Origin: Eledone cirrhosa
Taxonomy: Eukaryota
DNA length: 64,000 nucleotides
Direction of reading: 5' to 3'
Assembly: GCA_964016885.1 (NCBI GenBank)
Contig: OZ024746.1
Location: forward strand, 31,620,001-31,684,000
Both the position numbers and the translations under genes were made by a program. Of the stretch, positions 6,434 through 25,683 are shown piece after piece; the first letter of the stretch is position 1; every line of letters begins with the position of its first letter. Below the pieces are notes generated by a model. The model did not search any database. It had not been told where the DNA came from and worked only from the letters and a program-made list of their open reading frames with translations.

Positions 6434-6629
6434 ATGGAAAACGAAAATGTGGGAGGAGATGGTCATAAACAGACTAAGCTATATGACAGGGTTGGGGAAT
6501 CAATTTTCACTTACAAATATCGAGGCCACAATATGATTCCATTACCAATAGTGGCAGAAAACTTGGCCAAATTAAATTCACTCAAAATTCGTCCTGATGA
6601 TATTTTAATAAGCAGTTATCCAGCAGCAG
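6434..6629 (+). CDS. SULT gene 1 coding exon 1
   Basis: ATG 6434 ...SYPAA-G; donor GTAAGG at 6630. Confidence 0.88.
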
Positions 6630-9407
6630 GTAAGGCTTTTTAACTAAGAATTTTTTCTATGTGTCAACCAGTGGTGTGTGTTGGTGTTGGATAGCCATCA
6701 GTTCAGCCAATGATTATTCCAGTTGTTCAATAAACTGTACAGCCTACTTGTGAAATTAATGTGCATATGACTGAGCACTTCACAGACACCAGTCCTCTTA
6801 ATGTAGTTCTTTGGAAGATTGCAGGAACACAATGTGTGACAAAGCTAACCCTTTGAATTACAGGCACAACTGATTTTTACAAGCTGAGTGGATTAGAGTA
6901 ACCTAAAATAAAGTGTCTTACTCAAGGACACAACACACAGTTGGGAATTAAACCAACAATCTTTTGATTGTGAGCCAAAAATCTTAACTACTAAGCCACA
7001 TCCTTTCATGAGCTCATGGGAGTATTAGTGCTGTCTACTAGTGTTATTGTTATTTGCAAGACATTGATAATGGCTAAGTCTGTCAATGATATTAAACTGT
7101 TTATTTTAAAGTGTTTATATTTATCTAGATATCTTCCATGATCGTTTTATGTAAGAACCTTTGTTGAACTACCCCAGTTTCAATAGCGCTAAGCCACTGG
7201 CATCCTGATCTTTCATCCTTGGACAAGACACCAAACACCAACTTAATAATGAGAATAATAGTTATTGTACCAAATCCTTCCAAATTCCTCATTATTTTCA
7301 GAATTAGAGGCAATGTTTTTCATTAAAAATACAATTAAAAAAAAAAGCTGTATGATTATTGGTGGATATTGTAAGTATAACAGTTAGTTTCTCAGCTAAC
7401 TTGGGTAGTGATCTAAAGTATTAAATCTTTCTTTAAGATATTTCTAATAAAAGACACTACTTATAATCTAACACATGAGATAAAGTATTTATACGTTCTC
7501 CTTGGTCATTATATTGTTTTATTAATATTGTACATTTGTGTTTTTGTTGGTTTTTTTTTTTGAGAATGTGATAATTGTCAGCTATTATAAAAAATGTAGT
7601 TGTCTGTGAAGTGGAGATCATCTTTCTTTGGAATTGAAGGAAGGCCTGAAACACCCCTCTCCTTGGTTGATTGCCATTGCAAGTTTCATTGCAAAATTTC
7701 CGAAGGACCTTTTCTATGAGATAATTATGTGAGGTAAACCCTTTATCATGAAAATATAATAGTAAATATAGTGTAATGTAAATGCTAAAGGGTTAATATT
7801 GTCAGTATCGATAGTGTCGGACAACATGCTTCACAGCATAGTGCGGCCCTTTATGTTCAGAGGTCAAATCTCATCGAGGTTAGCTTTGCCTTTCATCCTT
7901 ACAGGGTCGATACAAGGGGTCGAGCACCAGTAATACACTGGGGTCGATTTAATCGACTTTCCTCTCCCCTTCAAATTGCTGGCCTTGTGCCCAAAGTAGA
8001 AACAATTATGTATGGGATGGGCAATATATATATAAAGATAATTTTATTTGGTTTTCTAGGCTCCCACTGGTTGTTTGAGATAATAAATATGATACTGAAT
8101 GAAAACAGTGAAAGAATATCAAGAATTAAAGAAGATGCAATGTTGGAACTTTCTACTCTTGAAATAATAGATGCTATGGATTCCCCACGTTTACTACAGA
8201 CACATCTACCTCCAGATATTATTCCTGAGGGTTTACTGAAAGACCATAAGTTTATATATCTCACACGCAACCCTAAAGCTGTAGTTGTGTCATACTACAG
8301 ACATTCTAGAGCCCTCGCAACATATGGATACCGAGGAACCATGGAAAATTTCTTTCACATGTTCAGGAATGGAGATGGTAACTACTACTGCTACTACTAC
8401 TACTTATGAATATATATATGTATATATATTATCATCATCATCGTTTAATGTCCACTTTCCAGGCTGGCATTGGTTAGATGAGTTGTCCCATTTGAGGCAA
8501 GTTGGGTCAGGTGACTGTGTCCTGCTCATACAGAACTGTTTCTGGTTAGATTTCTACCTTCCTAATGCCAACCACATTTACAGTGTGTGTTGGGTGCTTT
8601 TTGCCATGACTTTTACACAGCCACTTTACAGTGTGGACTGGGTGCTTTTTGTTGTGACACCTTCACGGCTACTTCACAGTGTGGACTGGGTGCTTTTAGT
8701 TGGGACACCTATATGACCATTTTACAGATGATATGATATGATATATATATATATATATGTAAATATCTTTAAGTCGTTTGGAAGCCTCGACAATGCAAAT
8801 GGGTAAATCTCCGGGTAACAAGATCCGGTGGTGGAGAGAGAGATGTAAGTGGGTGTACGTTGAGATGCGTGGTGTGTATAAGATGTGTAGAAGAATGAAG
8901 GAAAGAGTATAAAGGATAAAATAAAAATAACAACACGAGAGAGAGTTACCTTGGGAAAGATTTAATTGTTCCTATATATTTCGGATTCACATCCATCAAC
9001 TGGGGTTTTTTTCCGGGGTGGGGGAAAGGTTGTCTGTCGGAAAGGTGTCTGTCAAAACAACAAACAGCGGAGGACGCGTTTCGCACCTTTCCGACAGACA
9101 ACCTTTCCCCCACCCCGGAAAAAACCCCCAGTTGATGGATGTGAATCCGAAATATATAGGGACAATTAAATCTCTCCCAAGGTAACTCTCTCTCGTGTTG
9201 TTATTTTTATTTTATCCTTTATACTCTTTCCTTCATTCTTCTACACATCTTATACACACCACGCATCTCAACGTACACCCACTTACATCTCTCTCTCCAC
9301 CACCGGATCTTGTTACCCGGAGATTTACCCATTTGCATTGTCGAGGCTTCCAAACGACTTAAAGATATTTACTTATTATTCCACAATGCTTCAAGCAAAC
9401 TTCAATA

Positions 9408-9485
<78 letters not shown>

Positions 9486-23327: not shown

Positions 23328-23366
<39 letters not shown>

Positions 23367-25683
23367 AACAGTCACATAATTTCTTCATTATTCTCCACAT
23401 ATTTTCAGTTCCTTATGATGATTATTTTAAACATATACAAGAATGTTATGCTTTAATGAAAGACAACCCAAATGCTCTTATCGTAACGTATGAAGAAATG
23501 AAAGAGGTATTTATATATATATATATATTTATAAAATTCATAAGAATGTTAAAAGCTTGATCAAATTTTTTGACTTAACACATATTTGTTTATTTCTCAT
23601 TATGTAGGTATAGTTTTAACATAACAGAAGAAAATGTGAAGGCACTTTGGTGTAATGGTAGCATGTCTGCCCAGCGAGTATGAAGATGGGGGTTCATATC
23701 CCGTAGATGCTAATGTTCAATTTCACTATTAAAGGGCCTTATATGCCCTATTATTTAGAATATTTTTCTATGCACAAGGCCAGCAATTGTTTTGGACGGG
23801 GGGGGGAGGGTTGATTAAATTGACCATAGTGCATTACAGGTGCTTTATTTTATCGAGTCCGTAAGGATAAAAGGCAAAGTTAACCTTGGCGGGATTTGAA
23901 CTCATAATGTAAAGGGATGTAACTCTATGCTGCAAAGCATGGTGTCTGACACCCTACCATTACTGTCAATCCACTACCCTATGATAATAATAATAATAAT
24001 AATAATAATCAAAAGAGAGTAATCATTATAGAGAAAAATAGAAACCTAACAGTGTTTTTAATGTTGTTTTATTTTATTTATTATCCTTCCTTGTTTAAGA
24101 TAAAAAGCAGACAACGAAATGATGGAAGGTAGAAAGTAAATGAATCACTACCTCCTTATGGACAACTGATACTGCATACCAGGTCCGAATACAGAAGAGC
24201 CAAACACCCACTGTCATTGACTCCATCTCTCTGGCCCTCCCCATTTCTCCCTATTATGAGCAAATGGGGACCCATGTGCTGGCCGCCCCATGGCCCTGGC
24301 AGACAGAATGGAGAAGGTGTTTCCCTGGAGCATGGTAAGGGAGATGTGCTGGAAGAGCCATTCCATCTCGCGAAATTCACACCTGTGGCTAGCTAGGTCA
24401 GCGCCTATGGTGGTAAGTAGGGAGGTAGCACTAAGGTCAACGACACCAGAAGTTTCCACTGGTAGGGGCTCAAATACAAACCAAATTAGGAGATTTGAAA
24501 TTTGTAGAAGACAATAGAAACAGAGAAATAGAAAACATAAAACCAAATCTAGAACACAGTACAAGAAATACAACAATAATTTATAAAACAGATACAAAGT
24601 ACATTGTATTAAATATAAAAATATTGTTTCTACTTTTGGCACAAGGCCAGCAATTATCCCAGTGCATTACTGGAACTTTATTTTATCGATCTCTTAATGA
24701 TGAAAGGCAAAGTTAACCTTGGCGGGATTTGAACTCAGACCGTAAAGGGCCATAACTCTATGCTGCGAAGCATGGAGTTCGACCCTCTACCGATACTGCC
24801 AATCCACCGCCCTTATAAAAATATAAAAAAGTTTATAATTTCACTTGAAAATTTCTTTTTAACAGGATCTAATTAAAGTAGTGTCACATATTGCTAATTT
24901 CTTGGGGAAACCAATCAGTGGTGAACTAATTAAAAATATTGCTGACATGTGTACATTTGATAAAATGAAATCTGAAGAGAAAATATACACACAATATTAT
25001 CCTGATAATGGGTTCAAAGAAGGTGCAACTTACCTCCATTCTGGTAAATATAATAACTTACCTTATTCCAATACATCGTTGCATGTAATAAATTAAACTA
25101 TACCTGCTTTTCTTTATACAGTTGCCTTCTTTCATACACATCACATCTTACTAGGTCTACCTCTTCCACAATATCTCTCCACTGAGATTTCTCTGCACTC
25201 TTTTACAGCTGACATCTTCCATACACCTCCCAAGTCTTCCTGGGTCTCCCTCTTCTACAAATCCCAACAAGTGAAACTGGTGTAATATTCACCTCAAAAG
25301 TGAAACTGGTGTAATATCCACCTCCTAAGTAAAACCAGTGTAATATTTACCTCCAAAATGAAACTAGTGTAATATTCAAAGTAAAAATATTTTAGCATCT
25401 TATTTATGTAGAATTTGAAGTGGATGAAAATCAGCAAAATATTGACCTCAAGTATAAGTCACCACCTGCTCCAATTTTACTATCAATTTTTTGTCATATG
25501 TTTCTCAACTTAAATATGTGTATATACAGTATATATGTATATGTATGTATATATATTCTTTCCTTAATGTTTTCAGGTAAATTGGACACATGGAAAAAAT
25601 GGTTGACTGTGGAGCAAAGTGAAATAATAGATGCAAGAATCCAGTCAGAATTTACAGAACGAGGAATCAAATTTAATTCTTGA
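19586..25683 (+). CDS. Cytosolic sulfotransferase-fold protein, gene 2 (299 aa): join(19586..19784,22964..23281,23409..23506,24866..25043,25577..25683)
   Basis: [78 protein letters not shown] introns; exons 2-5 have the same lengths as in gene 1 (318/98/178/107); sum 900 nt. Confidence 0.93.
20704..21641 (+). mobile_element. 5'-truncated RTE-clade LINE (family B) with long 3' UTR and an internal ~112-bp tandem duplication
   Basis: [20 protein letters not shown]...[11 protein letters not shown]...GRPRKTW, stop 21154; UTR colinear with the 61869-62800(-) copy; (GAT)n tail. Confidence 0.92.
22206..22640 (+). mobile_element. Non-autonomous or internally deleted RTE (BovB-like) remnant between (TATG)n tracts
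   Basis: Terminal zinc finger [24 protein letters not shown]; 3' stem-loop CTCG-AAAA-CGAG also seen at ~43615(-). Confidence 0.6.
22964..23281 (+). CDS. SULT gene 2 coding exon 2
   Basis: Acceptor [17 protein letters not shown]...KGE, donor GTAAGG. Confidence 0.92.
23409..23506 (+). CDS. SULT gene 2 coding exon 3
   Basis: Acceptor ATTTTCAG, (V)[13 protein letters not shown]...TYEEMKE, donor GTATTT. Confidence 0.9.
23765..23980 (-). mobile_element. tRNA-derived SINE (family 1)
   Basis: Reverse complement of the family-1 sequence. Confidence 0.85.
24150..24490 (-). mobile_element. 3' fragment of a CRE-like non-LTR retrotransposon (restriction-like endonuclease end)
   Basis: [10 protein letters not shown]...IGADLA...[14 protein letters not shown] resembles the F.P.AVET.G...QR.S.A.QRGN terminus of CRE-clade elements (recalled motif). 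Confidence 0.55.
24622..24813 (-). mobile_element. tRNA-derived SINE (family 1)
   Basis: Full-length reverse copy ending CCACCGCCC. Confidence 0.9.
24866..25043 (+). CDS. SULT gene 2 coding exon 4
   Basis: Acceptor [22 protein letters not shown]...YLHS, donor GTAAAT. Confidence 0.9.
25269..25385. repeat. ~29-bp tandem repeat, 4 copies
   Basis: AAGTGAAACTGGTGTAATATTCACCTC variants. Confidence 0.85.
25577..25683 (+). CDS. SULT gene 2 coding exon 5
   Basis: Acceptor [22 protein letters not shown]...FNS, TGA. Confidence 0.92.

Follow-up and report, generated by a model that had tools for sequence, protein, structure and literature searches.

What do proteins do that keep the fold of a cytosolic sulfotransferase (SULT) and fail two of the motifs defining the SULTs that depend on 3'-phosphoadenosine 5'-phosphosulfate (PAPS)? 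The question is raised by a 64,000-nucleotide stretch of the octopod Eledone cirrhosa (contig OZ024746.1, positions 31,620,001 to 31,684,000; hereafter the window), in which two such SULT-fold genes, gene 1 and gene 2, lie intact and in tandem. They represent a real, conserved and apparently undescribed variant of the PF00685 family. Judging from their sequences, we lean towards the view that the encoded proteins would no longer transfer sulfate from PAPS and would act as pseudo-sulfotransferases, i.e., as non-catalytic binders of small molecules.

Two intact genes with altered cofactor motifs

Each gene has five exons with open frames, and all eight introns follow the GT-AG rule. Exons 2 to 5 measure 318, 98, 178 and 107 nucleotides in gene 1 as in gene 2, and the two proteins are identical at 142 of 284 aligned residues (50%). 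Identical models were recovered by an independent splice-site search. A first-pass annotation of this DNA had described two intact SULT-fold genes with equal lengths of exons 2 to 5 and a list of substitutions, all of which we find in the sequence. It had also suggested a comparison with Pfam: exon 2 passes the PF00685 cut-off in gene 1 (E 8.8e-19) and gene 2 (E 5e-14), and exon 4 of both genes likewise. The orthologue of gene 1 in Octopus vulgaris (P0001), which is of equal length, 70% identical and carries the same losses, scores 177 bits over positions 2-252 of the 255 in the profile; window exon 2 shares 72% identity with an O. vulgaris protein. Modeling of the structure, another of the suggested checks, points to a SULT1-like fold for P0001 (mean predicted local distance difference test score, pLDDT, of 81), the best Protein Data Bank (PDB) matches in Foldseek all being SULT1 structures (template modeling score 0.77-0.80). 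The ESM Atlas returned generic PF00685 clusters and nothing more specific. Lid residues 254-265 of P0001 fall under pLDDT 50. We do not take this to indicate a damaged cofactor site, since confidence is just as low at 253-260 in a scallop protein that keeps Lys48, modeled from a matched set of 13 sequences.

Numbering residues after SULT1A1 (chain 1z28, aligned to P0001), the altered positions in gene 1/gene 2 are K48 (Ala/Gly), K106 (Gln/Cys), D134 (Ala/Ser), R257-K258 (His-Asn/His-Ser) and G262-D263 (Asp-Thr in both). Retained in both are W53, H108, R130, S138, Y193, F229, G259 and the KxxxTVxxxE dimer motif (K270, T274, V275 and E279 in gene 1; alike in gene 2). Hence, of the canonical SULT features, His108 is present, the lysine of the 5'-phosphosulfate-binding (PSB) loop and the RKG/GxxGxxK motif are absent, and the 3'-phosphate-binding (3'-PB) motif keeps Arg130 and Ser138 with Ala or Ser at Asp134. 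These substitutions are neither chance nor assembly error, because 11 full-length proteins of the Octopus group show the same states, as do four further paralogues encoded in this genome.

The claim that PAPS-catalytic residues have been lost stands for Lys48 and RKG/GxxGDWK, which are near-universal in the aligned relatives. It had miscounted K106, which we drop as evidence of inactivity: among 136 Lys48-keeping relatives this position is Lys in six and Asn in 83, and human SULT2A1 has Ser. In the passage concerned of PMC7694633 (papers are cited here and below for individual passages), SULT2A1 with Ser at 106 apparently has no lower rate on the tested substrate, and all four SULT isoforms compared there share the His and the Lys that binds the cofactor. 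The opposite is described for position 106 in one fungal enzyme, of which the mutant is inactive (PMC7690957).

The two genes are part of a larger set. This genome encodes at least 11 Lys48-less genes (models built from genome-search stretches): five on contig C4, four on C6 (gene 1, gene 2 and two upstream genes on the opposite strand) and one each on C23 and C5. Cytosolic SULTs that keep Lys or Arg at position 48 amount to about six seemingly intact genes, as judged by exon matches (four in tandem on C3, one further on C3 and a canonical one on C23), accompanied by two defective ones, of which one is frameshifted and the other an intronless copy; these genome-wide counts are lower bounds. 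The four tandem genes (C3:145600000-145710000) are near-identical and related to the Watasenia sulfotransferase BBB86724. The frameshifted C3-type copy, at C3:159.88 Mb, is broken in exon 2, and the intronless, frameshifted copy of a C3-type gene at C5:17417805-17421248 is likely a processed pseudogene.

As the first-pass annotation had proposed, the subfamily has expanded and is under purifying selection. For ten paralogues (298 codons), the ratio of nonsynonymous to synonymous rates (omega, dN/dS) is 0.268, and twice the log-likelihood difference (2dlnL) between a free omega and omega 1 is 512. For six genes of the window subclade omega is 0.32 (2dlnL 182) and for the four youngest 0.40, also significantly below 1. 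Pairwise dN/dS lies between 0.14 and 0.49 in 44 of 45 pairs, the remaining pair being saturated, and is 0.33 at dS 1.26 for gene 1 and gene 2; all these values come from comparing paralogues, are averages over long times and in many cases approach saturation. It is thus scarcely credible that the genes are decaying pseudogenes. The rise of omega to 0.40 in the four youngest genes would speak for decay, but values near 1, which decay would produce, were not seen, every set tested has an omega below 1 (0.27-0.40), the frames are open with GT-AG introns in 11 of 11 Lys48-less genes, and intact orthologues exist in other octopods. Concerning expression, a 300-residue member of the window subclade is encoded on a public-run contig that, at 1,213 bases, is too short for the introns; it is likely a spliced transcript from some relative, a retrocopy being possible. 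Three further public-run contigs, from at most one sample, span exons and intron without a joint at the intron, and they are uninformative on expression because exons and intron are covered alike.

The Lys48-less branch and the order of its losses

We aligned 178 proteins of 250-345 residues. The outgroup was drawn from the best 150 of 4,675 matches plus one further search, and Lys48-less SULTs may exist elsewhere. Length excluded 39 of the first 163 proteins, whose lid motifs were inspected separately; one of them, of 349 residues, has RSG in place of RKG and a PSB lysine. All 136 aligned proteins outside the branch have Lys or Arg at position 48; none of the 42 inside it, which include near-duplicates, has either. 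In a tree of 48 rows, the 29 Lys48-less rows form one side of a single branch, with a support of 98 in the Shimodaira-Hasegawa-like approximate likelihood ratio test (SH-aLRT; quick search, no bootstrap), so that the tree proposed earlier yields one lineage.

Among the aligned proteins, the named Lys48-less members come from coleoid cephalopods only (Octopus, Argonauta and cuttlefish). Of the 13 close proteins found in the homologue searches, 12 are named and come from three Octopus species; members from Argonauta were recovered as well, and those from cuttlefish belong to Acanthosepion pharaonis. Because octopods and cuttlefish both have members, Lys48 was probably lost before the two lineages split, roughly 270 million years ago.

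The remaining losses are nested within this branch. In the basal group, which comprises P0022 and the C5 gene (C5:32925094-32967612, with a first intron of ~37 kb), the loss of Lys48 is the sole one: RKG and GDWK are retained and the protein is 84-88% identical across octopods. Non-basal members have Thr or Ala at Asp263 and Arg or Lys at His141. The cuttlefish group P0193-P0197 retains RKG, Lys258 is gone in P0198 and the octopod groups, and Asp134 is lost in two octopod subclades. Within the window subclade, Arg257 has become His (17 of 17 rows), Gly262 Asp (16 of 17) and Thr51 Ser. None of its 17 rows has Lys at 258, Asp at 134 or Asp at 263, against 102, 104 and 96 of 109 outgroup rows, respectively, and Arg257 is present in 106 of these 109. 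Nowhere in this outgroup is the loss of the RK pair combined with that of the PSB cation; the RK pair is deviant or truncated in eight rows, each with Lys or Arg at 48. Read from the tree, in which some inner forks have support below 95, the probable order is Lys48 first, followed by Asp263, Lys258 and Asp134 and, in the window subclade, by Arg257 and Gly262. The reach of the family into cuttlefish, the nested losses and the conserved Arg/Lys141, which leaves a rewired enzyme open, had all been overlooked earlier.

This distribution makes it very unlikely that we are dealing with ordinary PAPS-dependent sulfotransferases that tolerate substitutions, as the database names imply. The full SULT fold, the Pfam match and the fact that substitutions at K106 and T52 are normal in molluscs would agree with such enzymes. 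However, not one of the 136 aligned proteins outside the branch does without a PSB cation, and two of the three PAPS motifs that PMC7690957 describes as common to cytosolic SULTs are broken here.

Weighing the possible functions

The argument for lost sulfation is made because Lys48 and the RKG/GxxG motif are gone, not because of K106. Without Lys48, the sulfuryl group of PAPS would not be released efficiently, and without Arg257 and Lys258 the lid would clamp the 3'-phosphate poorly. The invariant His108 may instead hold a ligand hydroxyl in the former acceptor pocket, Trp53, Tyr193, Phe229, Arg130 and Ser138 would maintain the fold or a weaker adenine-nucleotide site, and the retained KxxxTVxxxE motif would permit dimerisation. 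We envisage soluble proteins with small phenol- or steroid-like ligands; the repeated duplications and the moderately fast divergence would suit a set of paralogues adapted to different ligands. A trait of pseudoenzymes is present indeed: a catalytic residue is lost while the fold is kept under purifying selection. According to a review, SULT1E1 has three catalytic residues, Lys47, His107 and Ser137 (PMC4757672), and three PAPS motifs are named for cytosolic SULTs (PMC4199319; PMC7690957). The size of the K48 effect is taken from reviews and general background, as the literature searched yielded neither primary Lys48 mutagenesis data nor a role for His141.

Several observations weigh against this interpretation. 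Gly50, Trp53, His108, Arg130, Phe229, Gly259 and Trp264 are invariant in 42 of 42 Lys48-less proteins and Tyr193 in 41; for His108, Arg130, Trp53, Gly50 and Gly259 this exceeds the obvious need of a carrier. Arg or Lys occupies position 141 in 38 of the 42, compared to one of 136 proteins outside, and Lys89 is found in all 42 and in 63% of the outgroup; either residue might replace the lost cation. His257 is itself invariant in the window subclade (17/17). Since the basal member keeps RKG and GDWK and its high identity across octopods, the cofactor site seems to have been under strong selection after the loss of Lys48. Moreover, calls of inactivity based on motifs have failed before: SULT4A1, in which the PSB lysine is present, was later reported to sulfate 1-naphthol (PMC7694633).

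Much of this would be accommodated by a rewired enzyme, to which we assign a smaller yet appreciable chance. In such a protein, binding of a 3'-phosphoadenosine cofactor would persist, His108 would serve as the base and Arg/Lys141 or Lys89 would provide the cation; the reaction could be sulfation, removal or exchange of sulfate, or a different transfer. Besides the enrichment of Arg/Lys141 (38/42 versus 1/136) and the invariance of His108, Arg130, Trp53, Gly259 and Lys89, it is favored by the RKG of the cuttlefish-group members and by the location of the new cation. In P0001, a single predicted helix (residues 137-150) carries both position 138 and position 141, the latter three residues, i.e., one helix turn, past Ser138, the partner of Lys48; in SULT1E1, Ser138 hydrogen-bonds the PSB lysine (PMC4757672). 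However, the tree shows the gain at 141 happening once, which leaves its link to the loss of Lys48 unreplicated; the basal C5 group (4 of 42) has neither Lys48 nor the new cation; and the window subclade additionally lacks Arg257 and Lys258 and has Asp at 262.

A more specific form of this idea, which we regard as rather doubtful, is that the cation has moved to the 3'-phosphate helix (Arg/Lys141) in these coleoid SULT-fold enzymes and serves some other chemistry that depends on His108, for instance the removal or exchange of sulfate, or the transfer of an acyl group from coenzyme A (CoA). The head group of CoA equals 3'-phosphoadenosine 5'-phosphate (PAP), and its arm could occupy the space vacated by Lys48. 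That the SULT fold can adopt new reactions around its His is illustrated by SULT7A1, which performs C-sulfonation (PMC10939482), and by insect retinol dehydratase (PDB 1fmj, 1x8j). According to the structure titles, both were solved with PAP bound, and SULT7A1 has the three PAPS-binding signature loops.

Finally, the proteins could be dimer partners that tune or damp the Lys48-keeping SULTs via KxxxTVxxxE, or an abundant structural protein; the crystallins derived from glutathione S-transferases (S-crystallins) offer a parallel for bulk proteins. The motif is intact in both window genes and also occurs in the Lys48-keeping C3 paralogues, and it mediates SULT dimers (PMC7690957). We nevertheless deem this improbable: at least 11 divergent Lys48-less genes face about six Lys48-keeping ones, and a docking role asks too little of the invariant pocket residues. 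Non-catalytic binding of small molecules stays the reading that we favor on balance.

The locus and the place of the family among SULTs

The positions of the two genes and of the surrounding features are collected in the table.

Table. Coordinates of the two SULT-fold genes and of neighboring features in the window (residue labels as in SULT1A1; single numbers give codon positions).
Feature	Position	Strand	Remarks
Gene 1, whole span	6434-11572	+	298 aa
Gene 1, exon 1	6434..6629	+	ATG to PSB loop; K48 position Ala, 6623
Gene 1, exon 2	8060..8377	+	W53 8068; clade-invariant Lys89 8128; K106 position Gln 8197; H108 8203; R130 8266; D134 position Ala 8278; S138 8290; gained Arg at H141 position 8299
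Gene 1, exon 3	9973..10070	+	Y193 10053
Gene 1, exon 4	10704..10881	+	Lid; R257 position His 10875; K258 position Asn 10878
Gene 1, exon 5	11466..11572	+	G262 position Asp; D263 position Thr; KxxxTVxxxE motif; stop
Gene 2, whole span	19586-25683	+	299 aa
Gene 2, exon 1	19586..19784	+	K48 position Gly, 19778
Gene 2, exon 2	22964..23281	+	K106 position Cys 23101; H108 23107; R130 23170; D134 position Ser 23182; S138 23194; gained Arg 23203
Gene 2, exon 3	23409..23506	+	
Gene 2, exon 4	24866..25043	+	R257 position His 25037; K258 position Ser 25040
Gene 2, exon 5	25577..25683	+	D-T-W-K replaces G-D-W-K; KxxxTVxxxE motif; stop
Orphan copy of gene 2 exon 5	35768..35857	-	5'-truncated, without splice acceptor; inside inverted duplication
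Inverted segmental duplication	25594-29406 and 33940-38533		Several pieces, 93-96% identical
Palindrome in gene 1 intron 2	8751-9379		~630 bases, near-perfect
GIY-YIG endonuclease frame	11757-12365	+	PF01541, E 2.2e-07; 185 bases past gene 1 stop
LINE-type copy, broken	15250-18340	-	
LINE-type copy, broken	20654-21427		
LINE-type copy, broken	36492-37627	+	
LINE-type copy, broken	53056-54016	+	
LINE-type copy, broken	61978-62848		
LTR-retrotransposon-like copy, broken	about 30000-33600	-	
LTR-retrotransposon-like copy, broken	about 54100-58100	-	
Tandem array	1628-2121		25-base unit
Degenerate A/C-rich tandem array	about 5650-6340		Ends ~100 bases upstream of gene 1 start codon

A third SULT gene at 35.8 kb was considered and ruled out: the match is a lone truncated duplicate of one exon, carried by the inverted copy (about 95% identical) of sequence lying downstream of gene 2. 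One arm of the palindrome (8751-9379) is similar to 12663-12982, which adjoins the GIY-YIG frame, and this likeness suggests a remnant of a Penelope-like element. The long interspersed nuclear element (LINE)-type copies were assigned by their endonuclease and reverse-transcriptase-like translations. The two long terminal repeat (LTR)-retrotransposon-like copies contain gag, protease, reverse transcriptase and integrase-like frames and share 76% identity over 2.8 kb.

Regarding relatives, the window proteins resemble human SULT1A1, SULT1B1, SULT1C2, SULT1E1, the 'SULT1B1-like' proteins of scallop, mussel and oyster and Watasenia BBB86724 in fold, length, His108, Arg130 and Ser138, and share with cytosolic SULTs Trp53, Tyr193, Phe229, Gly259 and the dimer motif. 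Identity to the molluscan SULT relatives is about 30-35%. Unlike cytosolic SULTs, they lack the PSB lysine and Asp134, have RKG and GxxGDWK replaced, and carry the new Arg141 and the invariant His257. Like SULT4A1, they are conserved SULT-fold proteins; SULT4A1 also has a disturbed RKG region and was long without known activity, and PAP did not stabilize it, although it bound catecholamines without PAP (PMC1847840). The PSB lysine is kept in SULT4A1, which has Leu for Trp53 and a shortened lid and is single-copy and slowly evolving, whereas the cephalopod family retains Trp53 and a lid of full length, has lost the lysine and is multi-copy. Orthology to SULT4A1 was accordingly rejected, as the window genes keep Trp53 and a full-length lid and lack the lysine; the best match of exon 2, 1zd1, falls to rank 35 of 45 when the full-length orthologue is used. 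In the open-licence PubMed Central (PMC) and bioRxiv literature we found neither a description of this family nor an assay of the Watasenia sulfotransferase, and the word pseudosulfotransferase turned up once, as a list item (PMC9539457).

The finding has consequences for how octopus sulfation is read from gene names. Most of the cytosolic SULT-like genes found here lack the catalytic lysine (at least 11 against about six intact Lys48-keeping ones), and databases label their relatives 'estrogen sulfotransferase' or 'SULT1C2/1C4/1E1-like', so inferences of steroid or xenobiotic sulfation in octopus that rest on such names may be wrong. A 'Sulfotransferase 1C2', e.g., which may or may not belong to the Lys48-less family, is among the steroid enzymes raised in the optic gland of brooding females (10.1101/340984). 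In addition, the family offers a natural nested series, with Lys48 lost first and the cofactor clamp later, in which the passage from enzyme to pseudoenzyme or to new chemistry can be tested, and its basal C5 member is the cleanest case for cofactor binding without the lysine.

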